Translations under genes and position numbers: made by a program
Notes under the pieces: model-generated
The model's database searches: none
What the model was told of the DNA's origin: nothing
What the model saw: the letters and a program-made list of their open reading frames with translations, nothing else
Assembly: GCF_964204645.1 (NCBI RefSeq)
Contig: NC_134029.1
Coordinates: 22,252,950 to 22,316,949 of the forward strand
From: Tubulanus polymorphus
Lineage: Eukaryota; Animalia; Nemertea
Reading direction: 5' to 3'
DNA length: 64,000 bases
Shown: piece after piece, positions 8,901 to 64,000 of the stretch
How positions within the stretch are numbered: the stretch's first letter is position 1
Layout of the letters: each line of letters opens with the position of its first letter

Positions 8901-9088
8901 TTTCGAAGGTACGTCTATTTCATTAGATACAATTTAGCTACTATGAACTATCAAGCCGCAATATTGAATTCATTGAATACATGTAATGTACAAATATATA
9001 TAAACGTATGTGTAAAATTGATTCAGCGTCTAAACCTGGACATGTTTGATCTTTGATCTTACTGATTACAACATCATAGAAATTACAA

Positions 9089-9461
<373 letters not shown>

Positions 9462-11797
9462 TTCACATAATGTTATCATTTGCAGCGATCTACTAAATTC
9501 GTAACAGCTTTTCCGCGAGATATATTCTCAATCTGGAAAACTTCTATTGCGTTGACTTCACGAACAGATTTTTTGAATGATTAAAATAAATGATAGAAAT
9601 ATATCCCCCATCATATAGAGTAGTATTGTTAAGCTGGTTGAGTCGTGTATAGTGCATCGATTTCTATCATAGGATTTTACAGTGTACATAAAAATAAATT
9701 AGAAATTGACGACAGAAATATTGTTTATCGATGTGTATGTCGTTTCTGATCGACTTTAAAGCTTCGTTTTTCAAACGTCGATGGTTATGTGGGTGTAATA
9801 CAGAAAACACTGTTTGAAATGCGCCCAATTGCCATTGGGAATTTACCAATTACGTGTTGTTTTTTAACCACGTACCTGGTACGCTCGGATTTCTGTCCAT
9901 TTTCGTCGCCGTTATGATTAATCAGGGCGATGGCATCTAGGGTTCCGGAAAATAAATTCCCGCTATTTTTATATCAACTTGCATAACCATATCTCCATGG
10001 TTCCCGTGGCCTTCACCTCGGTAATAAAACAACAAAAACCGCGCTTTACCTTTGATAGCAAAATACATTATTGTGGTTTTCAATAAAGATGTTGAAGTAA
10101 TGTAAAAATGTCGTGGAAACATTGATTTTTTCGTTAGGCTCAAATTAGCCTTTCAGGCAAAAACATTTATGGTGCTGTAAGATACATCGTCTTCGATTTC
10201 GATTATAGATGTAAAATGTGTACAAGCAGCGACGTAGATACGGTTTCGGATATCATCACGAATAACGAGCATAAAATGTTGTTCTATCATTATCGTTTTT
10301 AAATCATCTGCGAAACCAATTTGGAATTTTCTTGATTAAATCTTATCTATATAAACGAACGACATAGAGATGTCTGGCGCTCGCTGGTATGTGTGTTCGT
10401 TAGGCCGTAAACAAAGTGATTTCATTTTGACAGCTTCGTGACAGAACCTAGGCCATAAATCAAAAATACACCCATTTGACAAGTTCGTATGTCTGTACAT
10501 TAATTATATCTATGCAGATCATTTTGATAACAGGATAATAATGAGAATCCTTTTTGCATTCAATATGATTTAGAAAGAATTATCAAATAACGGCCACGAT
10601 TGTATTTAGTCGTTCGTATATCGTATTGAAAATAGAAATAGGCATATCTGATTCATGTTCGCGATTTGCTCGTAGCGGCGCCTTTTCTCGACATTTTTTT
10701 CTTCCTATAAAGACATTCATTTAGGCGCAACTTTCAACTGGTGAGCATCGTTTGAAATGCTGATCGAACGAGTGCTTATATGAAACATTATATCCAGCAC
10801 GGCTCGAGGCAGTACTAATTCATTTCAAAGTAAACTCACGCACTTACCGTTGTGTACAAATATAGACTCATATGATAGAGACATAGGCTGTTTATTAAAA
10901 ATTTATTGATAAATCGATGCTTTAATGTTATATGTAATAATAACAGTTGTTTTATGTGTTTTCCCCCTATATTTCTATAATACGTATCTATCATTGTCTG
11001 AATGGTTATTGCACAGTAGGGCGTGCATTAATATTAGCTTTTCGAGCAAGCTTTAGAACGGTGATTATTATCCGAAGTCGATAATTCATAGAAGACATTT
11101 TTACATTGTGTGGACGCAAAGGGCTGGTGGCTTATTCGAAGGGCCATAACATAAAGTTCATGATATGCAAAGAAGGCGTTACAATGCCAAAGCGCCAAAA
11201 CAAGGAGTCTTTTCTAAAAAAATCTGCTATGGCGTGATGAAACAAAGAATTTCTTGTTTTGGTGTCCACGCCGTACAAAATTTCTTTTGGATATTAGGAC
11301 TTTTATGTTTATGGTCCGAATGAGCCACAATACAAAGTGAAAATACATTAAATTATAGACATTAATAACATCTGGCGAAAGCTTTCCCGTTTACCAGGAT
11401 AGTCGATATATGTTTAGTATATATTTCTGATCAGCAAATCGTTGCCGCTGAATGGTTGCGTAATAACGAAGATGGAGAATATTCGGAAAAGGAATGGGAA
11501 AACCTGTCCATAGTTGCGCCATTTTCAGCAGGTAGCCGCGAAAATGTCGCCCTCACGTCGAAGATCGATCGCTCCGCGAGACGGTACGCGGCGGCGGCGG
11601 CGGCCAAACGATTCCTCTCCGCAGACGTCAATATCGCCGGCGCTAGCGCGAGCTGTTTTAGTCGATCGCCGTTCGCGATGGCGACGTTGTTGCTATTGCT
11701 TGATACTGTTACTGAAAGTTTTTGCTCGTTCATCACCAACCGCTGAAGCAAATTACATGGGATATTTACGTTGCACAAAGGCCGGATGGAGTGAAGT

Positions 11798-41600: not shown

Positions 41601-44600
41601 TTCTATTCGCAGCAGGGTTCTCACTATCGTTTGGTGCAATGTTTACTAAAACTTATCGTGTCCATCAAATATGCTCAAGGGCCCATAGTGGTCTCGTCAA
41701 AAGTAAGGTAAGTTAATTTCGTTTTCATCTAAGCCTAGAAATATTAGTTTTGTACCCTCAATTGTATAGAGTTTAACAATCGATACAATAACGTATAGTA
41801 GGCTTATTCGTGGCACTTGTGTAACGGGGAGACGACATCGACCAGAAGTTTATTGGATGGTGGAAGAAGTTGATATCACCACGCAGTAAACCCTTTGACT
41901 GGCAATAAACATCAGAAACTCATTAATTTCTCATTAACTCTTAACGTAATTCGTTCTGCAACACGCAGTTACGCGAAAGCTTCTTAAGACCTTAAAAATG
42001 AAACATAGTGAGACTCTTACAATTGCGGACTAAATGCAGGAGATGTTTGTTTACGAATCAATAGACTTCTGCACAGTTTTCCTCATCATTTCGATTACCT
42101 TGGTTGGAAATGAGTCAATTAGTTTTCTTTTTCATACACACTAATTGACTTTCTTCTATACTGGCAGTATTAACATAACATTATTTCAATCGGTTATCAG
42201 TTATTCGTTGTACAAAGAACAAACATCGCTTTTTCTTAATCGAATCATTTGTGAATACACCGGCTAAATATCCCCGGGGATCCGATCGTAATGCAAGCGG
42301 TAGGAGAATAATTCAATCCATATCCGCGTGTCCTTGGTCGCGGAATCTGCGGCTCTGACGACAAACGGGTCCCTAGAGTTGTATGAAATATCCAAACAAA
42401 TATTAAGTAGCGTTGTTAGAACCAATTCAAAGCCAACCCTCTCAGAGTATCGCAATAATTGCCACCGCAATCTACGCGTAAAGCTCGTTGATATTGAGTT
42501 GGATCTATGTATGGCTTATTTCTATCGTGGTTTCAGTTACTTAAAGACAAGCAACTTCTCATCATTATTGGTGCCTTACTCCTTGTCGATACTCTGGTTA
42601 TTTGTGTTTGGTGTCTTGTTGATCCTATGCATAGACAAATACTCAACTTCACCAGGGAGGTAAGTAGCTGTTTAAGAAGGTTTGTCCCGAATCTAGTCTA
42701 AATGCAATATTTCAAAAAACCAAGATCATTTCGATATCATTACAAACCAAATCTATTCCTAATTTGATTTCTATATCTGCAATTTGAAACTTGATTTTAG
42801 GATTCTCCAGATGATCCTGACGTAAAATTTGTTCCCCAAATGGCGCGTTGCCATTCGGTTCACATAGACAAATGGACGGGCGGATTTTACGCCTATAAAG
42901 GATTATTGCTCATTTTTGGTGTTTACATGGCCTGGGAAACGAGACACGTAAAAATACCGGCACTGAACGATTCGCAGTACATCGGAATGAACGTCTATAA
43001 CGTAGTTGTGACCAGCGTTATAGTAGTCGCTTTATCAAACATTCTATCGACGGAACCGACGGTGGCGTACAATTGCGTTTCAGCATTTATCATCTTGTCA
43101 ACAAGTGCTACATTAGCTTTACTTTTTATACCGAAGGTAAGTCTCCGTTTTACCGGTTTTCCAGTTCATTCAAAACCAATTTGCGACATCTCCGCGTACA
43201 CACTGCGACGGGAAGAGAAACTGCTTGCGTAAACCTAAACGATTATGTACGAATAACGTGAACGACGTCAATTTGACTCTGTTTTCAATGATTTTTTTTC
43301 TGCACATTTTTTATGCTTTCAGATTTATACTATTATAAAGTCGGATGGCAATCCGGTGATAACCACTTCCGGTTTGATGGTCGAGGCAAACACCAGACGA
43401 TTCGCCGTCGACGAAAAACGAGAACTATACTACAGAGCGGAAGTACAAAATAGAGTCTATAAGAGAGAACTGATGGAGGTAGATTGAAACTATTCGATAT
43501 CGCATAAATTCGACTTAGATTATTTCGGACGCACGGACGGATGAATGAATGAATTTTTTATTTTGCAAAATAAATTGTTACATAATTACAGGATCATAGG
43601 ATGAAATTACAATATGCACATACCATACACACACATTAATACACATATCATCTTGGAGTAATCATTCGAAATCATTTCAAATGATTACTCCAGGATATCA
43701 TACAACATATAATAGATGTAACGCTATAAATTGCGTTGAGAAGCTAAAAGCTTATACGGGTCCTTATCCCTCTAGATACGAACACGCGCACACACACCAC
43801 ATACGCACAAACATATACCATGCAGACGTTACTAAGCAAGAAAATGGGAACGGAATGATCAAAACTGTACATTTTATGGAACGAGATTTTTGGAAAAGTC
43901 CTCCAGTCGTATTCTACAATATCAACTACCATCGACTGAGAGTGTAACATTACATTGCGTGGTAGTAGATAATGAAGTTTGGCTAATAAAATGCTTAAAG
44001 CGAGATATTGTAGTTTAGCTCTGCCAGTACTATCATTTGTAAGGATTACCACAGGCGCTGAAATTCTCATTAGTTGACTGTAGATTCTTCAGTCACCGCG
44101 CGTCAAACATTCATTGCGTTCGCGTCTGAGTAAACCCCGTTCTCGTCACAATGTAGCATCATTTATTTTTTTCGATGGTAATAGGATATCTTCAGACTGA
44201 ATAGTTGCTGATAACAATTCAATATATGGTCGAATATCTTAGAAAAGTCTATTCGTTTTTTTTTCCAGTTGGACCAAGAGCTTACGCGTCTGCAGAAGTT
44301 ATTGAAACGACCTTCATCTCCTTACACTAGCAACATGCTGTTTTCACCGGATATCAAGAAGAATGGTCGATCCCCTCTTACAGGAAGACACATGAAAGGC
44401 GACGAAAAACGACCGTACGTATAACGGCATTACCATAACTACGTTCAACGAAATTAGCCGTAAAATAAACCGTATCCAAATTTGAAATAAAGCGGAAACT
44501 GGCAAATCGTGTTATCACACATGTAGCTCAGTTTCTAACGAAATTACAGCAACAAACACAATTTTCCAATGCACGAGATATCTCATTTTCCTGCTAAGGA

Positions 44601-47082: not shown

Positions 47083-50000
47083 ATGGTTTCCAAATACCCT
47101 CGTGAACCAGAGGTGGTTGAACTTGGGGAGGATGATGATGAAATGATAGTAAGTAAGATAAACAAAATTTTATGCTATTCTGATAACCAGTTCGATATTT
47201 CCTTCAGTCTCGTCTGTAGATCTTACCCATCTATTCTGCTGTATATAAAGTACTCAATATAAAGACGAAACGCTGTGAGCAATGTTTATTTCAATATCAT
47301 TCCATTTAGACCATTTATGGTTATCTACCGATGAGATGTTATCATTTTCTGTACTGGCTCTCGGCTATCCTAACTATTGGTCTTCTGCAAGCTGCTTTTG
47401 TTTGGAGACCGCAACTGCAAATATACCTCTTATATCGTGCGTGTCCACTATCGGAGGCCACACGAATTCTGGTCAAGGTAATGAAAAATAACACAAATCC
47501 TACCCTGAATCTCACACCTGAAGATGATCTCTAGGGTGAGATTGAAACGTCGTGTATTCTAGAATCAATTCTCGATCTTATAACACCTTTAATTTGTACA
47601 TAGTGGGTTTTTATCGTACAAACCTTACGTATATTGTTTTTTGTTATCGGATCAAATGAATGAATTTTAGAAAGTTGACTATTCGTTCCTAGGATTATTT
47701 TGGCCAAATCTGCGTAGAATCTGTGGAAACAGTTACTATTCCGAGCTACCGCGAAAATAAACCGTCGACCGTATTGCGTAGGTTTTACAACAGGAATGTG
47801 TACTACATATTCGACGACGACAAACAGCGTTACGAAAGACTGAGGTAGAACTGAAATTGTTCTAATCCTTTTTCTAATCATTCTGTAAATATTCAATCGA
47901 CACCACTTTCATCAATTGCATTTTTGGTATACAGGGCGTTTACATTGGATACGACATGCGGCTATTTTCATAACCAATGCAAAGGTTGGACTCCGAGAGA
48001 ACGAGAAATTAAGAAAATCCTGTATAAACCGAATATCATTGAAATCGAAGAGAGGCCGATTCATCATTTAGTTGTATATGAGGTACGCGGGAGGTTTTCG
48101 TGAGAGGTTTAGGAGAACCATAAAATAAAATAGCTTCTCTTGAATCGGCTACAAAATTGATATCTTGTTTCTCCTGAGCTGAGCTTAGAAATTGACCCGG
48201 CCGGCTGCCCATCTGCCCTTTGCATTACTCCTTTAAAAGTCGTTATCAAGCTAACCATAACAGACTTGGTAACTATGGAAAAGAACTGATTACATATTTT
48301 ATTGCGGTAATGACCTGGTCGATTAGGAGAAACGAGGGATCATTTTTAGCCAAAGATTATATATAAGAGTTGAGGTAAACAAACCATTTATGGATTTGTT
48401 TCAGGCATTGAATCCTATATACGCGTTTTGTACTTACGCCCTGATCGTCTGGTGTGCTCAAAATTATGTTTTGTATTCGGGATGTATTTTCTGTATGGCT
48501 GTTATTTCTGTGAGTCTATCGGTTTGGGAGACGAGGAAACAAACGAAAACGCTTCGGAGAAAGGTCGTGTCACAACGTCCGGTTACAGTAGTAAACAGAA
48601 ACGGAGGTTAGTATGGACGGGTTTTACGCACTGCGCAATATTTAGTAGAACGTTTCTTCTTAGAACCGAGAACTTGGGAGAAAATACCACAATCCTACCT
48701 ACAATATAACTTTTCAGCCGAAGAAGAAGTTTCCTCAGCGGACTTGGTACCCGGGGATATCATAATCATACCACAAACGGGAGCGGTGATGGAATGCGAT
48801 GCTGTACTTCTAAACGGCTCGTGCGTTGTCAATGAAAGCATGCTCACAGGTAGAAACGAAGACCAATCATACTGGCGTCCGAAATTGATAGCGCAGTCAA
48901 CAAAAATCCTGTCGTCTTTCCAAGAAAGCCGACGACTGTCTCGAAAGTTTCCCGCCGACATCTATTAAGACCCTTTACTAGAGGTTATTGCTTCTCGTCT
49001 AATATGTAAAAGGCAGTCTTTGATTTCCTGTGGGTGTTGGTGGTACAAGCAACGCTTTGACACCATGTGGCACTTCGCCCATGTTTCCCGTTTGCGATTA
49101 ACATTGCGTCGTTGTCTGTTCTCCCTGTGGTCACCAGCGACACGATCAGTCGCTGGGTGTTTAACTCGACGTTCCTACAGATACACGTTTAATATATTTA
49201 GGCTCTAACTTCTTTATTGATGAATAATTGCCACCTTCTTGAGTGGGAGAGACTTCTCTAGATCTGTTTCATGTTGCAAATGCCCATGCAATGATTTTCA
49301 AACAGGCTTACCTCCCCGACGGCCACCAACTGATGGTAAACAAAAATAAAATGAAATTGAAATTCTTAATTCTTACAGGAGAAAGCGTCCCTATTAGGAA
49401 AACGCCTGTAGCCAATGACCTTACGGTCTACTCATCTGTTAAACACAAATGCAACACATTATTTTGTGGAACTCAGATTTTGCAAGCCAATGGCAAAGGA
49501 GTTGTAAAAGCTTTAGTCCTGCGTACAGGTTAGTGATAGCTATTCATATCTGAAACTGATGTAATTATGATTTTTTTTCGAATGTTACATTAGTAACGTA
49601 GAAAGTTCTGGCCACAAATGAATTTCGAAGACACCTTCAAAATGTATTCTAACTACATGACATTCGTTCTAGGATTTGCAACAGCCAAAGGGGAATTAGT
49701 TCGTAGCATTCTGTTCCCGAAACCAGTCGACATTAAATTCTATGAGGATACAATAAAAGTGCTAGGCATTTCACTAGTTATCGGAGCTATTGGATCCATA
49801 TATACAGCGATCGTGTTGCACTTCAAAGGGGTTTGTATCCTTTCTTAGAAACTGATCGTTCTCAGAAGTATTGAATATTTGCAGATAGGTCTATACGGAT
49901 AAATGAATTAGGATGTGTGCTAAATCAACTGACTTCGAAACTAAATTACGTAACGATTTTTACCAACGTCGGCTACCTTTAATCGTTCCATCTGTGGTTC

Positions 50001-53000
50001 TACGTTTGCTTTCGGAAAAAGAAACTAAAACCCGCTTTATCACTTAAGAAAATCAACACGATTATTTTCCAAGCCTATTATTTCATAAGAAGATCAACAT
50101 TGTTAGGTATTTCTCCGTTATAGGCATCGTCAGAAAATATTATGTGGAATGCTTTGGACATCTTCACGTTCACGATACCCGTAGCTTTACCTACCGCGAT
50201 GACTATAGGCAATGCGTACGCTCAAGGTCGATTGAAGGAAGAGGAGATTTATTGTTTGAGCCTAAAATATATTAACTTTTGCGGTTCACTCGACGTTGTT
50301 TGTTTTGACAAGGTATGTGTACTGTACATAACTGTACAATCACAATTAACCCTCAAATCATTCATATTCAATAGATTTTAACATTTTTCTCTGTATCACG
50401 AATTCTATGTATATAATCTACTTTTTTTTTCATTTTGCAGACCGGGACATTAACGAACGAAGGATTAACACTTTGGGGCGTCAGTAGCGTCGAATACCAG
50501 AGGTAGAGCTTCCAGGCATTCTCATATTTTCCATAGAAATTTCAAATTTGCTCCAGCTCTTCTCAGAATTAATTCCACGTGTCTGAAACTCGTGCCTTTG
50601 TAGGTTTCATCTGAATCAAGACCCTAGTTCGCTACCGGTGTCGCCTTTTACGATCGGAATGGCGACGTGTCATTCGTTAGCGAAGATAGATGGCGAGGTA
50701 GTCGGTTATCCACTTGATCTAGTGATTTTCCAGTCAACGAAATGGGTAAGGGCTAAACCTTCTAATCAATTTCCATTAGAAACTTTTAGAATTTAACAAA
50801 GCCCGAAGGCGAAATGGGAAGAGTGGTAAATTGTTATTTCATTTTTGTTTAATGTCCTGTTTTTTAAGGAATTTTTTGACCACGACATGGAAGGCGGATT
50901 ATCCGTTGTCTCGCCCAGAGATGACACAATGAAACACGTAAGTCGAAGTGCAATTGACTAGAAAACCTAAACATAAGAATATCGAATAGAATGTAACTGC
51001 TATCCTTAAATAATTCCAGCGATATGCTATTGTAAAGCAATACACATTTTCATCTGCACTGCAATGTATGACAGTCGTTGTTGAAAACTTAGCGGAATCG
51101 GGCGCTTATTTTACTTTCACAAAAGGTTCACCAGAGAAATTAAAATCCATATGTTTACCAGAAACAGGTTGGAAAATTGAATCTGCAACAAAACTCAATA
51201 CAACTTATCAAACACCAAATTTACTTCAACATACATATTTTCCAGTGCCGACAAACTTCGATGCTGTTCTGCAGGCATACACGCGACAAGGCTTCCGTGT
51301 AATAGCCCTCGCATTCCGTCCACTCTTACAAACAGAAGTTTATTCACTCCAAGCTGAAAATCGGTAACAATCTTAAGAATTTAGATTCTGTACTCTCCAG
51401 TAATATGTCCTTAAGACCATGGTCGCCACCAGAGGGGGCTAAGGGGTCGGAGATGCGGACGACCCCCATTTCTAAATCCAAGTTCCGCATTTTCATGAGT
51501 TCCAAATTTCATTTTTTCATATTCCGGAAATTTCATGAATATTTTGAAGGTCCAGAAACCGCCCTTCACAAGCTTTCAAAAATTAAAACTATTTAAGAAC
51601 ATTCAAGCAATTTCAAGGATTCAGAAATGCTCGTTTGCCATCGGCGCTCTGCGGAGACGGTGCAAAGTATTGCATGTAGTTCTGCTTCTGTATTAATTCT
51701 AACTGGAATGGATAAAACCAATGAATGGATAAAACCAGTATCAATGACCAACCCCAGTATCCCAGTATAATGAAAAGAAAAACTTTTTCGTATTTTAGGT
51801 GTAGCTTAGAATCAAACCTTACGTTTCTGGGAATTATAATTTTGAAGAACACATTGAAACCAGAAACAATTCCAGCTCTTGAAAAATTAACAAATGCTGA
51901 TATCAGAACGGTGATGGTTACAGGTAATCTGATTCTACGCGTGAGGCATAATTTCTCTTTTGCCATTTCTTATTATTTTTTTTTGTGGATTATATATATA
52001 TTTCCAGGGGATAATTTGTTGACCGCTCTAAAAGTTGGGCACGACTGTAACATTCTGAAACCTGACCGCGATACGTACGTCGTCAATACAACTAAACATA
52101 AAGATAAACTGATCTTATCTTATCAACAACTGGAAGGCGATAACAGCTCGACCCAGGTTCAAATATTTTCAAACGTATATCAAATCATTAAGCTTCAAAA
52201 CAATGGATAAATATTGAATACAGATAGAAAAATTGTAGCATTTGGTTAAATTCTCACGAGTGCGAATTGCAAAATAATCTCCACGCGACGAGCTGTTTAA
52301 AGATTCTACGGAATGTGTTATACATGCGTCTTCGTGCATCTGTTTTCAGGGCGCTGAAAATTTTCCTATACCGGATACAACTCGCGATTTTCAGTTGGCG
52401 ATTGATGGCAAAAACTTCGCTCTTATCCACGCATACGATTCGGAATTACTTCAGAAGGTAGTGTCGTAATTATAAAGAATCTTGTATTGTATTTCCCCGG
52501 CTAGTTATGGAATTGAATGAATTTTCTTTCAGATTGTACTGAAAGGTGCAATTTTCGCGCGGATGTTGCCTGAACAGAAGGTACAACTAGTTGAGGCCCT
52601 ACAGGGCATTGGGTCAGTACTCACTACGGTTCATTTTCAACTATAAATACGTTACTGAAATTGTATTTAAGTTTGCACGCTCCTGCAGGTGCATACAATA
52701 TAGTCAGAATTACCTAATTCATTTGCTTGCAAAATTTCTATTTGTTTATCTTTCGGATTCAGTACATATGCAACAAAAGCTACAAATCGATTTCTATGAA
52801 ATGACTAACTCGATTTGAATGTCGAATTTTAGATACTCGGTAGGTATGTGCGGCGATGGAGCCAACGATTGCGGAGCTCTGAAAACGGCTAATGCTGGCA
52901 TATCCCTGAGCGTCGCCGAGGCTTCCGTGGCATCTCCATTTACATCGAAGAAAACCAACATATCTTGCGTTCCGAAATTGATCAGGTTTGAACGATAGTT

Positions 53001-56000
53001 CGATATAATTAGTATCTATTCGCTATATCTCTCATATCGGGACACAGTTAACGTTATATCTTTTTCAGAGAAGGCCGTTGCGCTCTTGTGACAGCGTTTG
53101 GTGTTTTCAAACATCTGCTAGCAACACACTGGCTCTATTTCACCCTGGCGCTGTTACTGTTTTGGGTAGTTTGAATCGAAATTGTAATTCTTCAACGTTT
53201 TCTTCCGACCAATATGTCAGATTAGCTCAAGTAAATGACCATACTTTTCAGAATGTTCTGGATTTCTACGATAGTCAGTACGTGTTCATGGATCTGGCGT
53301 GTTTGATCTTCCCGACAATATTTTGTTAGTATTTTCAACAGTATTCGAAGATGAATCATGAACTGTGAAAATCTTCTGATGAAGTTGGTTTCAAGTTCTG
53401 ATAATGCCCATTTAGTTTTTTCTTCATATTGTGGGTTTTTACTTCAAATCTTCTGATAAAATCAAATTGTTCATATATTACAGTTGGAAATGTAGCGGCC
53501 TACGCGAAACTAGTGCCCCGCCAACCACCTACATCACTGTTCAGTTTCCACTCTCTTTTCTCCGTTCTCTCTTTTCTCATACTCAACACGGCATTTGCAG
53601 TCGGACTTTTGAAACTCATCGAAATTCAGCCTTGGTAAGATTTATCAACTGTCACGCCGTAATCACTGCATTCAGGCCGTAGAAGATATACGTTTTTGTT
53701 ATTTGTTCGTCTTTCGTAGGTATATGCCTTTTGAATACAAAAGGGAGGACGAGTTGAACTTCGAAAGTTATGACAACACGGCGGTATATTTGTATGGTTG
53801 TTTTTCATTCGCTTGTTCCGTCATTTCGTTTTCCTGGGGAGCGCCATACCGTCAACCACTTTACAAATACAGTACGTTACTTTCAACAAGTCTTCCTTGT
53901 AATATGATAAATCCTACAAGGCGAATTCACGAGTAGTTAGTTATACGTTTAAGATCTGTCCGTTCTAAAATTTCGTATTAAATGATGATTTAAATCAAAC
54001 AGCCATCAAAACTAACCCAATCAGTTGCTTGCCAGTTCGGGCTGGTTAGAAGATTGTTTGATGAACCGAATTATCTCAACTTCGTTTTAAACAGAAAATT
54101 CTGTAAATTTTACCGCCGATCACACAACGCTATATCTGTACTTCGATTATCGATTTCAAAATCAAACCCCTGGTTCCGCTTCCGGCAGGTGAGGTAGGTT
54201 TGGAAAGGACAACAAATCAAATCAAATCGGAGCAAATATACCAATCAAATCAAGGGTCATTCCCGATTTTAAGATACAAAGGAAAATCTGCACGGTATAC
54301 AGTAAACAGCCTTCTCGATATCGAGTTCCAAAAGATTTTAGACTACTCTGTATTTGTTTTAGATTGTGTACCCTAATCCCCTTACAACAATTCCACCTTT
54401 ATACCGTATACATACTAAAAAATGCATATATTCTAATAATGCATACATTCAATAACTGAATTTATCAATTCATTGTGAAGTATTTCGTATTTTAGAGGTA
54501 TTTCTCGTTGGTATGACGGTCTTGTTTTTCGTCGTGATCGGGCAATTCATCTATCCACCTAATTTCGCTGTATATCTATTCGGGGTATGTAAATCTGACT
54601 TGAAATTAAAAAAAAAAAAAATCACTCAGTCATCTCAACAAAACAAAAAGAAATTCCTGGTACCTGATAGTACCAGGTAGCTCACGAATGAATTCATGAC
54701 TCATAGTGCATTTCACTTTCTTTTTCGTAATGTGCATTCAACGCAATCATAAAAATGAATTGAACAATGTTGACATCGTAAACAGTAATAATAAAGGCAA
54801 CTTTTTTACTTTATTAACAATCTTTCTCACTGATAATGTTTTTTTTTAGATGAAAATGGCCCCATCGCTTATATTCCGATGTATTATGCTACTTTATTGT
54901 TTAGCTGCAAATTTAACCATCATTATTTGGGAGGTAGATTGCATTTCGGCAATATTTTGATAATGAAATTTCATGATACGTTCTGGATTTCTAATAATCG
55001 TACGCTATCTTTGTAGACGTACGTTGTACAAGAGTTTCTATGGAACTTCGTTGTACCGAAGATCATCGCTCGAATTGTCGGACCGGGTACGAAATATGAG
55101 CAGTTACAGCAGCAAATCGACGACGACTCTCAGCAGGAATACCTGTGGTCATCAGCTGATCGTCTGTCGTACAGGTCGAGTCAGCACGCCGAATCAGAGT
55201 TGGTTATTCCGGCCATTAACACCAGTACCGATGAAATCAACCTCCTAATGCCCAGGCATTCTCAACCGAGACTAAGCCTACCGTCCATTATCACGATGCG
55301 GAAACAGCGTCGCAAATCGTTCAATATCTATCGGACTCCGAATATGTTTGTTCCGCCTACGCGTAAAGTCAGATCCGCCGTCGAAGTAAACAATATCGAT
55401 ACGGCGTTCTTTCAGGTTTTTAATTCAGATTCTAGCTTGGATCTGATCTATACCGCGGAAGAAGAGAAATTTATTGATGGTGGTTTGCAGGGTGTATTTA
55501 ATGAATATACGTCGCACATCGACCTGACATTAAGCAACATGAACGGCGGAAGCAAATACGAGTTACCAACTCGTAATAATGAACTCGCTAAGAAATACGG
55601 CCTGGAAATATTCATCGATGATACAGATTCCGCTAAGCGAATGAAAAACTTTCACCAGAATCATAAACAACATGATGAAAAGTCTCAAAATCAGCACGTT
55701 AAGTCATTTCAAAGACAAGATTCTGAGCATTGTCCAAATAGCAATGGCCAGATGGAGATATCTAAACACTCAAACTGCCTACAGTCTGAAGAATATACTC
55801 CCGAATTTTCAGACAATATCGAGTATCTAGAAATGGATGATACTGATTTTTGGGATTCTCGAGTACCGGAAGACCGGCCAGATTCCGGACTGACGAATCG
55901 AACTGAGCGTCGACTGCCTTTACAAATATTACACAAACAAGCGCAGTCAGAAAAACATATCAGACGATCTAGTTTACCCGTATTGATAACTGAAGAGCGT

Positions 56001-56306
56001 TATTCAGAAAACACATCGAAAATTGATTCAATCAATGAAAAAACTGTTTCTCTAAATGAACGTTCTTCGTCTGTGCCGATGATTGCGTCAAATGTGGGAG
56101 GGCTCCAGCAATCATCGTTTTCACCTGCACCGAAACAACATCAATCATTCGCATCATCGTCGTTATCGTCATTATCATCACCTAGTCGAAGTCAGTCGCA
56201 TCGTCATCACAAACGTCATAAGAAATTCAACGCGCAGGCAGTTACAGGAAAAATGAGATCATTGGACAGTCTATACAATAAACACATCCCTGAAATAGAC
56301 GGTTAG
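47083..56306 (+). CDS. P5B-type P-type ATPase (ATP13A2/ATP13A3-like), 26 exons, ~1484 aa
   Basis: Hand-spliced exons: 47083-47148, 47310-47477, 47693-47844, 47935-48082, 48405-48606, 48718-48849, 49379-49528, 49673-49830, 50124-50312, 50441-50502, 50604-50745, 50869-50937, 51020-51167, 51246-51363, 51799-51923, 52008-52156, 52350-52457, 52533-52612, 52833-52985, 53069-53165, 53252-53324, 53484-53634, 53720-53871, 54496-54584, 54850-54933, 55017-56306 (4455 nt, open throughout). Motifs: [101 protein letters not shown]. Confidence 0.93.
54138..54280 (+). repeat. Dispersed repeat family, copy C (ATPase intron 23)
   Basis: gtacttcgattatcgatttcaaaatcaaacccctggttccgcttccggc...accaatcaaatcaagggtcattcccgattttaagat. 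Confidence 0.75.
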
Positions 56307-56971
56307 ACACATCGACCAATCATTGATCAAATTCGGACATTTGAAACAGAATGTTCATGTTCTCTTCGCGTCATCTGGGATATAGAAATTGACCTAAAAT
56401 ACTGAGATCATTCGGAGTTCACGTGCTATCAGTGATTTAGAGACTTTCTTTCAAATCCATGTGATTCATGTAAATAAATACTCTTATTCAAAATATTGCC
56501 TAAAATGCTTTTTTTTCATTTATTTCGTCGACGCGACTATTGTCTAGTTAAATACAGCTGCACTTGAATGTTTATCTTCTGATAATCATCGAGAACGTAT
56601 TTTCATAATTCTTTCTCCATTCAAAACCACAAACATTGCATACATTCAATAAAGGACACAAAATATATGAATAGGAATTGTATAATTCCTGGAAAATGAT
56701 CGAAAGTGTTATTGTTAAGGGATAAACATCTTCAGAATTCAGAAAGTTATCGCAGGTTTATATCCAGTAAATTTTTATGTTTGTTATACTGTCAAACGAT
56801 CCACGGGAGGGGCAAAGAAAGCCACGCCAAACTAGGAAGTTTTATTCAGTTATATCAAAAGGAACGTTTTTTTTTTTAGTAATCTGACATGATTTATTGT
56901 CCTTGCAAATATGTAGTTTAATTGATGAATCTCTTAAGATTTTATGCGTTTTTTGCTGAATGGTGAATATT

Positions 56972-57033
56972 TTGCTCAATGGGGTTTTTTCGATCTGGAA
57001 AACCCACATTCTATTGAGAAAAACTGTATAAAA
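56972..57033 (+). promoter_or_regulatory. Proximal promoter of peptide copy 1: C/EBP-like site, two kB-like sites, TATA box
   Basis: TTGCTCAAT 56972-56980; GGGGTTTTTT 56981-56990; GGAAAACCCA 56997-57006 (reverse TGGGTTTTCC); TATAAAA 57027-57033, ~30 bp upstream of the probable non-coding exon. The block is conserved upstream of copy 2. Confidence 0.55.
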
Positions 57034-57206
57034 CTAGCGAAAATTTGAACATTTTCATAAACAACTGAGATTCCTGAAGCACAGGTCGCAAGAAAATTCA
57101 ACACTTCAACAAATGTAAGTAACAAACTCTCAATGAGACTTTCTTCTAGATTGCAATTTCTTATATATGGATTTATTTTGTTTTCTATTTTTTTTTCTAT
57201 CCGAAG

Positions 57207-58001
57207 ATGCGCTCTTTAGTTTTATTGGCTCTGGTTTGTTTGGTGGTGGCACTGTACTCTGTTCAGCCGGGAGAAGCAGCGACATACCACTGTCGTCGTT
57301 ATTGTTTTATTCGCTGCCATTATTTCCCTGGATATGGCTGGAGATGTTTCATCTACTGCAGGTATGGATGCATCAGACATTACCACAAACGAGACGTTGC
57401 TGAAGTAGCCAATGTAAGTTTTTTTTTCTATTTTATGTTATCAGTTTATCGTAATCATTTTTTATTTCGAAACGAATGTAACAAGACACTGACTGTATTT
57501 CATATTGGTATAATCGACTTTTCATAGGAAGCGAATAGAACAGATACCGAACACAAAGTACACAAAGTATCAATTCCGAACAACTTCGATTTCTTCGATA
57601 TAGACGAAGATGAAAAGATATCAGTGGATGAATTTGCCGCTGGAATGAATTTGGATGACGATGATGCTAAATTCTTCATACACCAGGCCGACAATAATGG
57701 TAAGTTACGAGTAATAATGTTGGTTAATCTACTCTTGCAATGTGTGTGATAATGTTCTAAACACAGAACTAAATACAGATTAGATATACCGTGTATCTCC
57801 TACATTGCAGAGGACTCATTTGTTGACAGGGAAGAATTCAAAAACGCTCCCTGGCCATTCCAGGAAAAGAATGATGGTAAGTGAAAACTACTGTAAATTG
57901 TCGGTTATCCTCCAACTTACATCAAATCTGTATCTTCGTATCTTTATTCAAAATCTCTTTTCATATTTTCAGTTGAATCGTGTGACTGCAAGAAACCATA
58001 A
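57207..58001 (+). CDS. Secreted precursor, copy 1 (157 aa): signal peptide + 6-Cys cationic hairpin-like peptide + KR + two-EF-hand acidic pro-domain
   Basis: Coding exons 57207-57413, 57528-57699, 57811-57876, 57973-58001 (474 nt, GT-AG, phases 0/1/1). Protein: MRSLVLLALVCLVVALYSVQPGEA / ATYHCRRYCFIRCHYFPGYGWRCFIYCRYGCIRHYH / KR / DVAEVANEANRTDTEHKVHKVSIPNNFDFFDIDEDEKISVDEFAAGMNLDDDDAKFFIHQADNNEDSFVDREEFKNAPWPFQEKNDVESCDCKKP. The paralog at 59308-61232 has the same exon structure. Probable non-coding first exon ~57057-57114 (donor GTAAGT at 57115). Confidence 0.85.
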
Positions 58002-59081
58002 CCGAGTGAAGCAATGACAAATCGCTCTCACTAGACTAGCACATACCTACATAGATTACTGCAACCGTCCAATTTATTTATATATGACAATTTTACTAAT
58101 TTACTAATTCTATCGTGTTCCATGTATTTCTGTTATTCTTTCTTTGATTCTTTATTGATGATTGAGTGAAATATTAATTATTGTTATCATAATTACACTT
58201 TTTGTAACAAATAATAGATCTGATGATATTTATTCGCTTCTACGTAGAATTATATTTTCATAACAGATAAGTATGTAAAATACCGCATAATAAACTATGA
58301 GATATAGATAGATGAAAAAATGTCTTTGTATTCTTTGATTAAGTGATTCTGACTTTTATTACGCGTTCTCGTAGTGGTTCTGATGAGATATTTCAACGTA
58401 TGATGGAACTCGGGAGCGAGGAAAAGACAAAGTCCCTCTTTGTGCCAACCTTATGAAACATGCAGAATTCCTTGACGGAGGAGTTACGACTTACGACTTA
58501 CGAATTTCTAAATGATCGAGATACAACGTTGTTAATGGTGGTGCCCGGTGGTATTTGATGGAACAGTCAGCGGTTACGTCGTTTATCGCAGAGGACTTCA
58601 ATTTATTATGGTGGCTGATTCGATTCATACTAAACACTTTTTCTGTACGGCGAGAGACACGATAAAAAATTTTCATACTGGCCCGTTTTTTTCTTTTCTC
58701 GCGCGAGATAATAGATCTGGTGGTATTTATTCGTTTTTAACGTAAAAGTATATTTTCATAGAAAAAGATCAGTGTGTAAAATACCGCATAATCAGCCATA
58801 AAATTTAGATAGTTGAAAATTATATCTTCCAGTTTTTCATTGAAATTTATTATGATTCTTTTTACACGGTCCAATAGTGGTTTTGATTTATATTTCAACC
58901 AGCCTTTCTTGAAGTGAAAGTATGCCATGTCGGACAAAGAAGTATATAATATCAACTTATTCTCATTTCAAAAGGAAAGGCTTTTGAATCTGACACGATT
59001 TATTGTCCTTGCGAATATTTAGTTCAATTGATGACTCTCTTTATTAAGATTTTATGCATTTTTGGCTGAATTGTGAATATT

Positions 59082-59307: not shown

Positions 59308-61232
59308 ATGCGTTATTAAGTGTTATCGGTTCTGGTTTGTTTGGTGTTGGCGCTCTACTGCATTCAGCCGGGAGAAGCAAGAACATTCCATTGTAATCGT
59401 TATTGTAGAGTTCGCTGCGTTTATAGCAGATGCGGCCGGTGGACTTGTGGTATCCGCTGCTATATCGCTTGCCACGGACGAAGGCACAAACCGGAGACGT
59501 TTCTGATGTAGCCGCTGTGAGTTTTTTTCTGATTCTTTTATATCATCATCAGTGTTATCTGAATCGTTTTCAATTTTGAAACGGAAGTGATAAGAGACTG
59601 ACTGTATTTCACGTTGGTGTAATTGACGTTTTATAGGAAGCAAATAGAACACGGCACCAAGAACACGATGTAGCGATCCCGAATGATTTCGACAGCTTCG
59701 ATATAGACGAAGATGAAAAGATATCTATGGAAGAATTTGCCGCTGGAATGAGTTTGGATGACGATGATGCAAGATATTTCATACACCAGGCCGACAATGA
59801 TGGTAAGTTGCGCATAGTAATGTTGGCTAATCTACTCGTACAATGTTTGTAATAATGTTCTAAACACAAAACTAAATACAGATTAGATTTACTGCAGATC
59901 TAGATTTTTTTTAGATTTAATCTATTGCTCCAGATATTATGCAATTTTTTCGAGCACAGGATACAAAACAATAAACAATTTACAGTAACACAGTAACACA
60001 GTTACAATTACTCCAGTTACATTTAAAATATACAGTTATTGTAACAGTTTCTTCTTCTATACATATTTCATTATACACGTGATGTGCACAGCGATGGCTA
60101 GGCGATTCTATGTGGGTTTTTTAATAAATACTGCTAGCTTACTCAATATGTTTGGGTCTTGTGAAGTAAAAAGATTCATAAAATTTCTTAAGTTAGGGAT
60201 ATTTAGTGGTTGTTGCGGTATGTAGCGACTTCTTAAACTTTCAAAAAAGTACACTCATTATGAAATGGTATTCGTCGACAATTTTTCCTAGGTTACATTT
60301 GGTACAAAGTCGTTCATTGCGGGGAATATGTTCGTATCTTCCCGTTTCAATCGGTAGGTGATGGTTAGAACAACGGAACCGTATTAAAATTGTCCTTAGG
60401 TCAAATGGTAACGCTAGTGAACATATTTCCCGCCCCCAATTCAGCTTAATAATTCCGTAAGCATCTAGTTTTGTTGAGGCTTCAATTGTCTGGTGCCATT
60501 TCTGTTTAAATTGGTCTTGTAAACGTAGTTTAACAATTTCTGACAAATAACGGCAGTTCGGGAAAGATTGTTCGTACCAAATATAACTTATGGACCACAG
60601 TTTTCTAAGATCGACTGGATTCACGTTATCCATTTACTGGTCTTACCATTTACATGATTTTTTGATAGGATGCGATATATTTTACCGGAATGAGTGTTGC
60701 TCTCTGTAATCAGGTGTCCCCAAAACTTTACCATTCTGACTTTTATTTGTATTTCAAAGGAAAATCGTCCTAATTCTCTGTAAACCATAGCGTTTGGTGT
60801 TGCACGTTTCAATTTCAATAGGTATTTGCAGAACATAAGGTGTATTTTCTCGATTGCATCTAAGTTCGAGAAACCCCGTATTTCACTACCAAAAGTAAGG
60901 ATTGATCCAACCATTGCATCAAAAATTCTAAATGCAATGTCTATAGTTAAAGAGTATTGCTGTACTTTTTAAGTACAAAAAATAGTGCTTTTTTCGCTTG
61001 GTCGCAGACATCGCCTACATTGTATATCTCCTACATTGCAGAGGACTCATTTATCGACAGGGAAGAATTCAAACACGCTCCCTGGCCATTCCAGGAAAAG
61101 AATGATGGTAAGTGAAAACTACTGCGAATTGTCGGTTATGTTCAAACTCCGAGCAGATCTTTATCCTCGTAATTTCATGTAAAATCTCTTTTCGTATTTT
61201 CAGTTGAATCGTGTGACTGCAAGAAACCATAA
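59308..61232 (+). pseudogene. Disabled paralog (copy 2) of the Cys-hairpin/EF-hand precursor
   Basis: Exons 59308-59516, 59637-59802, 61042-61107, 61204-61232 align with copy 1. Codon 4 is TAA (59317-59319; TTA in copy 1). There is a +2-nt frameshift at the KR site (aaaccggagac vs aaacgagac, ~59491), and a LINE fragment sits in the intron between the two EF-hand exons. Confidence 0.85.
59895..61022 (-). mobile_element. 5'-truncated, frameshifted non-LTR retrotransposon (LINE ORF2 C-terminal part; RTE-X-like, tentative)
   Basis: Minus-strand fragments LDAIEKIHLMFCKYLLKLKRATPNAMVYRELGR and RFRCSNHHLPIETGRYEHIPRNERLCTKCNLGKIVDEYHFI (C-terminal Cys/His knuckle of LINE ORF2), continuing in another frame as RYIP...LSKLAVFIKK. 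The sequence is absent from the homologous intron of copy 1. T8 run near 59905 marks the 3' end. Boundaries are approximate. Confidence 0.85.
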
Positions 61233-61890: not shown

Positions 61891-62310
61891 AAAATGGTGG
61901 ATTTCCCCATCTTATATATTCCAATGTTTCATTCTTCTCAATTGTTTAGCTGCAAATTCAAATAGAATTCATAATTAACTGGGTTGTAAATTACATATAT
62001 TATTTTTTTTAAACACGCATCAAATATTGTTTCAAATAATGGAAAAACTGTTTCTCTAAATGATCGTACTTCGTCTGTGCCGATGATTGCGTCGAATGTG
62101 GGAGGGCCCCAGCGACAATCACTTCACCGGCACCGAAACAACATCAATCATTCGCATCATCGTCGTTATCGTCATTATCATCACCAAGTCGAGGTCAGTC
62201 GCATCGTCATCACAAACGTCATAAGAAATCCAACGCGCAGGCAGTTACAGGAAAAATGAGATCATTGGACAGTCAATAAAATAAACACATCCCCGAAATA
62301 GACGGTTAGA
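61891..62310 (+). pseudogene. Duplicated, decayed 3' fragments of the P5B ATPase gene
   Basis: 61891-61985 resembles exon 25 (shared ttgtttagctgcaaatt, cccatc..tatattcc.atg). About 62010-62310 closely copies 56010-56308 (end of the last exon through the stop) with indels that break the frame. Confidence 0.8.
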
Positions 62311-62483
62311 TATGGTGGCTGATTAGGGCCAAAAATTCCGTGCAATATACCATGCAAAAAATATATATTGCTTCGTTTCTGCGTCCGTTTCAGCGTGGCG
62401 CAAAAACGAAATTTACCGCGCTAAAACGCACCAAAACGGGCGCTGAAACGAATGTTCGTTTCTGCGTTCGTTTTGGCGCGTTT

Positions 62484-64000
62484 CGACCAATAATTGATCA
62501 AATTCTGACATTTGAAATAGAATTTTCATGTTCTCTACGCGTCATCTGGGATAACGAAATCGATCCAAAATACTGAGGCCATTCAGAGTTCACGTGTTAC
62601 TAGTGATTTAGAGACTTTCTTTCAAATTCATGTGACTCGTGTAAATAAATACTCTTATTCAAAATATCGCCTAAAAATGCTTTCTTTCTCATATTTTCGT
62701 GGACACGACTTTTGTCTAGTTAAGTACAAACTAGACGGTTAGACACATCGACCAATCATTGATCAAATTCGGACATTTTACTATTTCCAGGCTAACTGTG
62801 ACCGGACGACACAGTCTCCAGAACGCTTTGTTTTTGCGCGGTGTGGCGCCACGTCACAGGTGTTTGACCTACTTATCCCCTTACTGTCTAAATGGCAATG
62901 TATAAAGCTTATACGGCTTGTATGTATGCTTAGTCCTGGCAACCCCAGGGACTTGTTTTTGTTCGAGCTCGCTGGCGGGTGTATGAATAAAATCTATGTA
63001 GGTCACGAAAGTCATTATCGGTGAATTGAGGTCAAGTTGTGTAAACAAAGTAGGGCAAAATTGAAAGCTTTATAAATAGACACAGCGGCTGGTATACGGT
63101 GTCTATACATGACGCAGTGGATATAATGAAGATATATAGAGAGAATATGAAGCTGCAGTTAGGGGTAGGGGTACCCGAATGACCCGAAAGTAGGTCAATT
63201 TTTTGTTGTTGACATTTTGGGGGCCCCTAACGACCCCAGAATAGCTAGATCATCAGAAACAAGCTGAATCATCATATTTTAGTGTAGGGAAGCGTATTAG
63301 ACCGTCTAGAAGTTTGAGAACTAGAATTTTTTTTCGAAATAAAGTTAGCAAAATCTCAGGATCTGGTTTTTAGGGAAGTCGCATGGAAAGAGTTTTAAGT
63401 AGAATGTTCATGTTCTCTACGCGTCATCTGGGATAACGAAATCGATCTAAAATACTGAGACCATTCAGAGTTCACGTGTTATCACTGATTTAGAGACTTT
63501 CTTTCAAATTCACGTGACTCTAGTAAATGAATAATCACTCATAAAAATATCGCCTATAAGAATGCTTTTTTCTTCCTATGTTTTTCATCAACACGGTTAT
63601 TGTCTAGTTTAGTACAGCTGCAATACACCCCCAGCCCTGATTATCTTTAAGGACGTATTTTGATAATTCTCTCTCCATTCTAAAAGTTAAAACCTTTTTA
63701 CATATCTATTAGATCTGCGTTCCAGACTTTTGCAAAAAATATTGGTATGTCCCGAATCAGCAACCATACTAGACACCTAATGAAGGGTGCAAAAATGGGA
63801 TTAGCATTAAAGAATCCCTGGAAAATGATCGATCGAACGTTTCATTGCTGACAGATAAAAATCTTTAGAAAATGTCAAAAGTTTCCCGCAGATTTATATC
63901 CACCAAGTATTTATGGTTATGTAACTGCCAAACCACCCTTTGTTGAGGTTTCGGACTAAGAAGTAAATAATATCAACATATTCTTATTTCAAAAAGAAAT
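62484..64000 (+). repeat. Further segmental copies of the ATPase 3'UTR / peptide-gene upstream flank
   Basis: 62484-62720 resembles 56312-56550. 62731-62778 plus 63401-63935 resemble 56296-56800, split by an insertion. 63971-64000 (tatcaacatattcttatttcaaaaagaaat) resembles 58950-58979 upstream of copy 2. Confidence 0.8.
62779..63400. mobile_element. ~620-bp non-coding insertion (probable non-autonomous element)
   Basis: Interrupts the duplicated flank between ggacattt and agaatgttcatg, which are 5 bp apart at 56334-56360. No ORF. The family was not identified. Confidence 0.5.

Follow-up and report, generated by a model that had tools for sequence, protein, structure and literature searches.

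The window analysed here is a stretch of 64,000 nucleotides of contig NC_134029.1 from the palaeonemertean ribbon worm Tubulanus polymorphus, and it contains a gene for a small, putatively secreted peptide precursor (copy 1) together with a broken tandem copy of it (copy 2). Splicing of the four coding exons of copy 1, whose three introns all have GT-AG borders, yields a frame of 474 nt that encodes 157 aa and has one stop, at its end. The spliced protein is identical, letter for letter, to P0001, a database entry named 'uncharacterized protein LOC141906539 [Tubulanus polymorphus]' whose NCBI model is itself a prediction; the frame is further supported by the splice sites and by purifying selection on the EF-hand domain between the two copies. 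An earlier sequence-only reading of the locus had proposed a spliced product consisting of a signal peptide, a 36-aa peptide, a KR site and an acidic tail, and both the spliced frame and the identity with P0001 bear out this layout. That reading had also remarked that the track of open reading frames hides the architecture, and the plain ORF at 57207-57527 indeed extends into intron 1.

The signal peptide cleavage site, after G-E-A, was placed by eye and by conservation among paralogues. The 36-aa peptide that follows contains six Arg, four His, no Lys and neither Asp nor Glu, giving a net charge of +6, and 11 aromatic residues (three Phe, seven Tyr and one Trp). Its Cys residues lie at positions 5, 9, 13, 23, 27 and 31, corresponding to C-x3-C-x3-C-x9-C-x3-C-x3-C; our recount of this composition and of the mirror-symmetric spacing agreed with what had been claimed at the outset. 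The tail after the KR site comprises 95 aa with a net charge of -17 and includes two 12-residue EF-hand loops. A six-frame scan of the window located the symmetric six-Cys array twice, both times in the copy 1/copy 2 gene pair, and zero times in 100 simulated windows.

Table 1. Positions of the features of copy 1, copy 2 and their flanks in the window.
Feature	Position	Strand	Remark
TATAAA box upstream of copy 1	57027..57032	+	putative promoter element; flank also kept upstream of copy 2
Likely 5'-UTR intron	57115..57206	+	GTAAGT donor; pyrimidine tract and AG abutting the ATG; proposed from these signals
Coding exon 1	57207-57413	+	signal peptide, six-Cys peptide, KR, then start of acidic spacer
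Signal peptide, 24 aa, within exon 1	57207..57278	+	probable cleavage site
Cationic peptide of 36 aa with six Cys; beta-hairpin with three rungs predicted	57279..57386	+	
KR dibasic site	57387..57392	+	proprotein convertase cut likely
Start of acidic spacer, end of coding exon 1	57393..57413	+	
Coding exon 2	57528..57699	+	spacer with N-x-T sequon, EF-hand 1, start of EF-hand 2
Coding exon 3	57811..57876	+	remainder of EF-hand 2 and conserved APWPF motif
Coding exon 4	57973..58001	+	C-D-C tail, stop
Candidate polyadenylation signal	58289..58294	+	first AATAAA 3' of the stop
Tandem copy 2, broken	59308..61232	+	codon 4 is a premature stop; reading frame broken near the codons of the cleavage site
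Copy 2 Cys array	59380-59487	+	seven Cys
Copy 2 later exons	59637-59802, 61042-61107, 61204-61232	+	
Duplicated upstream flank	62012..64000	+	likely leads into another copy

Copy 2 retains every splice site. The seventh Cys of its peptide sits in the middle of the 9-residue loop. The NCBI model of copy 2, P0006, lacks the peptide because it starts at a later ATG (59430) in a different frame. Intron 2 of copy 2 has received an insertion of about 1.1 kb (59890-61030), unrelated in sequence and unique within the window; two minus-strand ORFs, at 60241-60633 and 60621-60914, resemble by eye a LINE reverse transcriptase at its 3' end, and neither matched Pfam. Since the flank of copy 1 is duplicated again at the far end of the window, a further copy is likely to lie just beyond it, and P0008 and P0002, which have close locus numbers on a record of equal length, fit such a copy. 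Within this flank, 62012-62310 repeats, at 92%, the stretch 56008-56307, in which the long ORF that lies upstream of copy 1 ends; the tandem duplication brought it along.

The DNA upstream of copy 1 holds fragments of two other kinds of gene. Exon fragments of a class C GPCR, GABA-B-receptor-like by eye, are spread over 11795-45341, with Pfam 7tm_3 matched at 42801-43229 (E 3.8e-20). Exon fragments of a P-type ATPase, P5/ATP13A-like by eye, occupy 48612-56306 (E1-E2_ATPase, E 9.3e-11), and a 352-aa ORF at 55248-56306 may be its last exon. A long (AT)n microsatellite at about 9060-9500 gives rise to spurious Tyr-Ile ORFs. A search with a simple pattern found no NF-kB-like motif near copy 1.

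The paralogue family and its relatives

The gene belongs to a real, annotated yet uncharacterised family. T. polymorphus has seven full-length models (P0001, P0002, P0003, P0004, P0005, P0008 and P0009) and the truncated P0006, eight in total, located on records of three different lengths. Among the seven, the peptide is 29-42 aa long with a net charge of +5 to +10, and the tail carries -9 to -18. Six Cys are present in five of them and four in the other two, P0002 and P0008, from which Cys1 and Cys6 are jointly missing. The intervals within the arms are x3 throughout, and only the inner loop differs (9, 10, 10, 10, 9, 8 and 4 residues). The basic site is KR in six of the seven and R-D-A-R in the other, and all seven have an N-x-T sequon in the spacer. 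A C-D-C motif near the C-terminus (57973-57998 in copy 1) is likewise kept in 7/7; it might form a bond inside the tail or link two precursors. The peptides of P0004, P0009 and P0013, the last a relative from outside T. polymorphus, end in G-KR, which is an amidation signal, and no Gly precedes the KR of copy 1.

Both EF-hand loops, with D at position 1, D or N at positions 3 and 5 and E at position 12, were present in all nine proteins examined; position 6 of the loop is not Gly in copy 1. Pfam EF-hand_1 was matched in all 11 members of the alignment, P0001 falling below the curated cut-off. Across six paralogues, the mean pairwise identity is 0.74 for the signal peptide, 0.83 for the EF domain and 0.45 for the peptide (0.37 without Cys): the signal peptide and the EF-hand tail are conserved around a hypervariable peptide.

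We compared copy 1 with copy 2 in the same respect, the partner in all of these figures being a broken gene. The peptide-coding DNA is identical at 60 of 108 positions (56%) and the introns at 245 of 295 (83%; Fisher p 4e-8, or 1e-5 with gaps counted). The EF domain is under purifying selection between the two window copies (pN 0.062, pS 0.227; pN > pS in 13 of 2000 bootstraps). For the peptide, pN was 0.46 vs a pS of 0.39, and dN exceeded dS in 1477 of 2000 bootstraps; this is not significant, so that positive selection is suggested by these values and was rejected as a proven result. Synonymous sites in the peptide have diverged more than the introns (0.39 vs 0.17), and a contribution from gene conversion in the flanks or from local hypermutation is therefore conceivable. 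The rapid divergence of the peptide fits a role in defence; a hypervariable peptide between conserved flanks is equally typical of venom peptides.

Relatives outside T. polymorphus were sought in several collections. A full HMMER scan with exon 1 matched P0001 and an unrelated repetitive protein, P0007, only. The profile search gave 22 matches, namely seven from T. polymorphus, four precursors with a similar tail (P0011, P0012, P0013 and P0019) and 11 others, among which the three inspected (P0010, P0014 and P0015) are generic EF-hand proteins. P0013 and P0027 have the same architecture as P0001, with 27% identity to it over 145 columns, and comprise a 27-aa peptide with six Cys and a loop of 5, a G-KR site and an EF-hand pair; of the 130 positions compared between the two, 4 differ, and each of these lies within the peptide. 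P0011, P0012 and P0019, together with P0025 and P0026, consist of a signal peptide, a poly-Gly or Gly/Arg-rich cargo (Gly-rich and of low complexity in the first three), a basic site and a similar EF-hand tail, and possibly constitute a second cargo class.

In the ESM Atlas, the best feature match (0.85) was a 144-aa, mostly molluscan EF-hand cluster, which serves as a lead only, and precursor residues 1-69 had no usable feature match. The metagenome scan returned at least three loci, and the two inspected are generic EF-hand proteins. Among prokaryote genomes, P0013 hit 18 loci, 16 of which match from residue 59 onward only and two of which match over a longer stretch that lacks the Cys array. 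The viral contigs gave no match.

Predicted fold and candidate functions

The sequence-only reading had envisaged a beta-hairpin laddered by three disulfides, and structure prediction together with the paired loss of Cys1 and Cys6 supports this model. AlphaFold2 returned a beta-hairpin both from the precursor alignment (strands 24-40 and 44-60) and from the peptide alone (strands 2-16 and 20-34; mean pLDDT of the five models 84 to 66, pTM 0.38), in the latter case with the three Cys pairs in register. The symmetric strand ends set the register as C5:C31, C9:C27 and C13:C23, that is, a predicted C1-C6, C2-C5, C3-C4 ladder. The joint absence of Cys1 and Cys6 supports an outer C1-C6 rung; it is equally compatible with a helical ladder and is likely a single event, because P0002 and P0008 fall in one 90% cluster. 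In the predicted register, the face opposite the Cys ladder has 16 residues, 7 of them Arg, Lys or His, and the Cys face, which also holds Tyr, Ile and Trp, has 2 such residues out of 14.

The composition of the peptides points the same way. Among the 30 non-Cys residues of the copy 1 peptide, 15 are V, I, Y, F, W or T and one is A, E, L, M or Q; these helix formers number 0 to 3 of 21-36 non-Cys residues in all nine peptides. In 11 of 12 arms, among them one near tie, the hydrophobic moment was larger at beta than at helical periodicity, a weak indicator given arms of 9 residues and related sequences. A review of antimicrobial peptides with a beta-hairpin fold (beta-AMPs) cautions that structure models of short peptides are unreliable (PMC13001179). 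Fold searches, run with the precursor and with the peptide, found nothing at or below E 0.001, with alvinellacin at rank 28 for the peptide (E 5.7) and a best VIA-align Z of 3.3; neither relatedness nor a novel fold follows from them.

We favour, with a probability of roughly 0.6, the view that these genes encode a diversifying family of antimicrobial host-defence peptides. The cationic charge, the enrichment in Arg and the Cys pairs at least three residues apart match the beta-AMP class (PMC13001179), and the family likely acts like a beta-hairpin host-defence peptide while standing outside each named family considered. The precursor would be secreted. Cleavage at the signal site and, by a convertase, at KR would probably free the segment of 36 residues, rich in Arg and aromatics, for which a long beta-hairpin held by a ladder of three disulfides is predicted. 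By analogy with the beta-AMP class, the hairpin would likely bind and disrupt anionic microbial membranes, and copies ending in G-KR may be amidated, as is common among hairpin antimicrobial peptides (PMC13001179). The acidic, likely glycosylated and putatively Ca2+-binding tail may neutralise or package the cationic hairpin in secretory cells, in the manner described for BRICHOS and the annelid hairpins (PMC13001179). Tandem duplication, turnover of the peptide and loss of copies would together generate a changing arsenal.

The main rival reading, appreciably less probable, is that the same precursor delivers a peptide toxin in mucus or from the proboscis, cytolytic or acting on ion channels, against predators or prey. 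Duplicated genes and hypervariable peptides are typical features of venoms. Cys-rich peptide toxins are among the secretions of nemerteans, mucus included, and B-IV, a helical hairpin laddered by disulfides, is one of them (PMC6410017); the mucus of Cephalothrix cf. simula contains six-Cys cationic peptides (PMC12846013). Against this, a PDB sequence search with the peptide gave nigellin-1.1 as its sole match, which at E 1.2 is not significant, Pfam found no toxin family in the precursor, and the tail motifs APWPFQ and IPNNFD had no match in the accessible part of the nemertean toxin supplement of PMC9415933. Moreover, the only characterised precursors found with such a layout are the antifungal mytimycins (PMC8004829), and the composition of the peptide is that of membrane-active antimicrobial peptides. 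In a mucus secretion, the antimicrobial and toxin readings could both hold.

A structural or adhesive secretion, destined for tube or mucus, is improbable. The worm builds tubes, and such a material could be cross-linked or bind metal through Tyr, His and Arg and set Ca2+-dependently through its EF-hands; the seven Tyr and four His per 36 residues would suit it, a beta-rich peptide could aggregate, and P0011, P0012 and P0019 carry their Gly-rich, low-complexity cargo on a similar tail. However, the peptides of P0004, P0005 and P0009 are devoid of His, the peptide is the least conserved part of the precursor, whereas in a structural unit one would look for a conserved or repeated sequence, and the dibasic site and amidation signals indicate small released peptides. 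Slightly less probable again is a helix-loop-helix alpha-hairpinin that has converged on the nigellin-type 6C array and acts as a protease inhibitor or a non-lytic antifungal: the exact fit to the 6C motif with its commonest loops, 9 and 10 (PMC11591084), the nigellin-1.1 match and the loosely helical turgencins of identical pairing (PMC7024374) speak for it, but the beta strands in both AlphaFold2 predictions, the scarcity of helix formers, the beta-periodic arms and the insignificance of that match speak against it.

Should the antimicrobial reading be true, the family would add the phylum Nemertea and a longer, three-rung scaffold to the 25 beta-hairpin antimicrobial peptide families reviewed in PMC13001179. 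Structure-activity studies could draw on its natural range of loop lengths (4-10) and of rung numbers (2 or 3), and with a mytimycin-type tail on unrelated cargo, the role of the EF-hand extension becomes testable. The tail also provides a search handle, just as mining for BRICHOS led to the hairpins of annelids (PMC13001179). More speculatively, though with some plausibility, the acidic EF-hand pair might be a modular pro-domain for carrying cargo that is widespread among marine invertebrates, a Ca-controlled counterpart of BRICHOS. Cationic cargo of unrelated kinds would have been loaded onto it independently (mytimycins with 12 Cys, beta-ladders with three rungs and loops of 4-10 residues, and linear peptides rich in Gly/Arg) and would be kept inert until secretion. 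If so, mining for EF-hand tails would reveal a hidden superfamily of defence peptides, and among natural antimicrobials that are single beta-hairpins, the nemertean ladders would be the longest.

Comparison with known peptide families

The published families were compared using the parts of the cited papers accessible to us. The Cys array had been taken at first to belong to no named family; this proved wrong, as it is the 6C motif of plant alpha-hairpinins, CX3CX3CX4-20CX3CX3C, in which loops of 9 and 10 are commonest (PMC11591084), and the copy 1 peptide conforms to it exactly. Alpha-hairpinins such as nigellin-1.1 (PDB 2NB2) are helix-loop-helix peptides from plant precursors, whereas the nemertean peptide is predicted to be beta and has few helix formers. 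On the question of a close match to a characterised family, the Cys spacing and the precursor layout have precedents, but the peptide fell outside every named family considered.

The suggested likeness to mytimycins holds. These antifungal peptides of Mytilus derive from precursors of about 152 aa with a signal peptide, a Cys-rich peptide, a dibasic site followed by D-V and an anionic extension with an EF-hand pair, encoded by genes whose first exon is non-coding (PMC8004829). The mytimycin peptide differs in having about 54 aa and 12 Cys without mirror symmetry, compared with 36 aa and six Cys here. The EF-hand extension is stated to have no known function in that paper; homology between the mytimycin and nemertean tails was compared by eye, without a score. 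A further legend on the mytimycin layout is given in PMC7653742, and the accessible part of PMC5549309 held nothing relevant to this comparison.

The beta-AMP review of 2026 covers 25 natural families of 11-25 aa from five phyla, in which His is rare, and mentions neither nemerteans nor EF-hands in its accessible text (PMC13001179). With a charge of +6 and six Arg, the copy 1 peptide lies within the range of the class (+1 to +8, Arg-rich); its Cys are at least three residues apart, their nested pairing being predicted, and its length of 36 aa and its four His are atypical. It resembles tachyplesin/polyphemusin, capitellacin, alvinellacin and arenicin-3 in being cationic and Arg-rich with aromatic and beta-branched strands, in its predicted nested disulfides, in its probable release from a proprotein and, in some paralogues, in an amidation signal. 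Those peptides have 17-22 aa and two disulfides, however, as opposed to 29-42 aa and three rungs here (two in two paralogues), and the copy 1 peptide lies outside tachyplesin/polyphemusin as defined by 17-18 aa, two disulfides and a C-terminal amide. Annelid hairpins have an N-terminal BRICHOS pro-domain, in contrast to the C-terminal EF-hand pro-domain of the nemertean precursors. The theta-defensins, the three-disulfide family of the review, are likewise single beta-hairpins with three disulfides but are backbone-cyclised primate peptides of 18 aa (PMC13001179). The ascidian turgencins A and B are marine peptides with antibacterial activity, about 36 aa long, whose six Cys pair as C1-C6/C2-C5/C3-C4; they form a loose helix-loop-helix by NMR, and their precursors and genes are not known in PMC7024374.

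Among nemertean peptides, B-IV and the beta-nemertides are also disulfide-cross-linked hairpins, yet they have 55 aa, eight Cys and a helical hairpin (PMC6410017), and the copy 1 peptide lies outside their definition. Membership of myticin (Pfam PF10690) was rejected, as P0001 scored 21.1 bits (E 3.7e-4), under the curated cut-off of 28.5; 5 of the 11 alignment members match this family at E up to 0.1. A defensin/myticin-like mucus family is reported to be absent from palaeonemerteans except Cephalothrix (PMC10674772). Two six-Cys cationic mucus peptides of the palaeonemertean Cephalothrix cf. simula (PMC12846013), compared by description only, could bear on the novelty of the family described here. 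In their accessible parts, PMC9415933, PMC7460313 and PMC11768458 contained nothing that matches the nemertean ladder family, and the term 'EF-hand' does not occur in PMC9415933, PMC12846013, PMC11768458 and one further paper on nemertean toxins and appears once in PMC7460313. Within the open-access literature, we found no paper on a nemertean family of EF-hand-tailed hairpin peptides. The predicted beta form of the 6C or ladder array looks new, the turgencins and alpha-hairpinins being helical or loosely helical. Each element of the nemertean precursor has its precedent, and what appears to be new is their combination, a long, predicted three-rung beta-ladder on a mytimycin-type EF-hand pro-domain in Nemertea.
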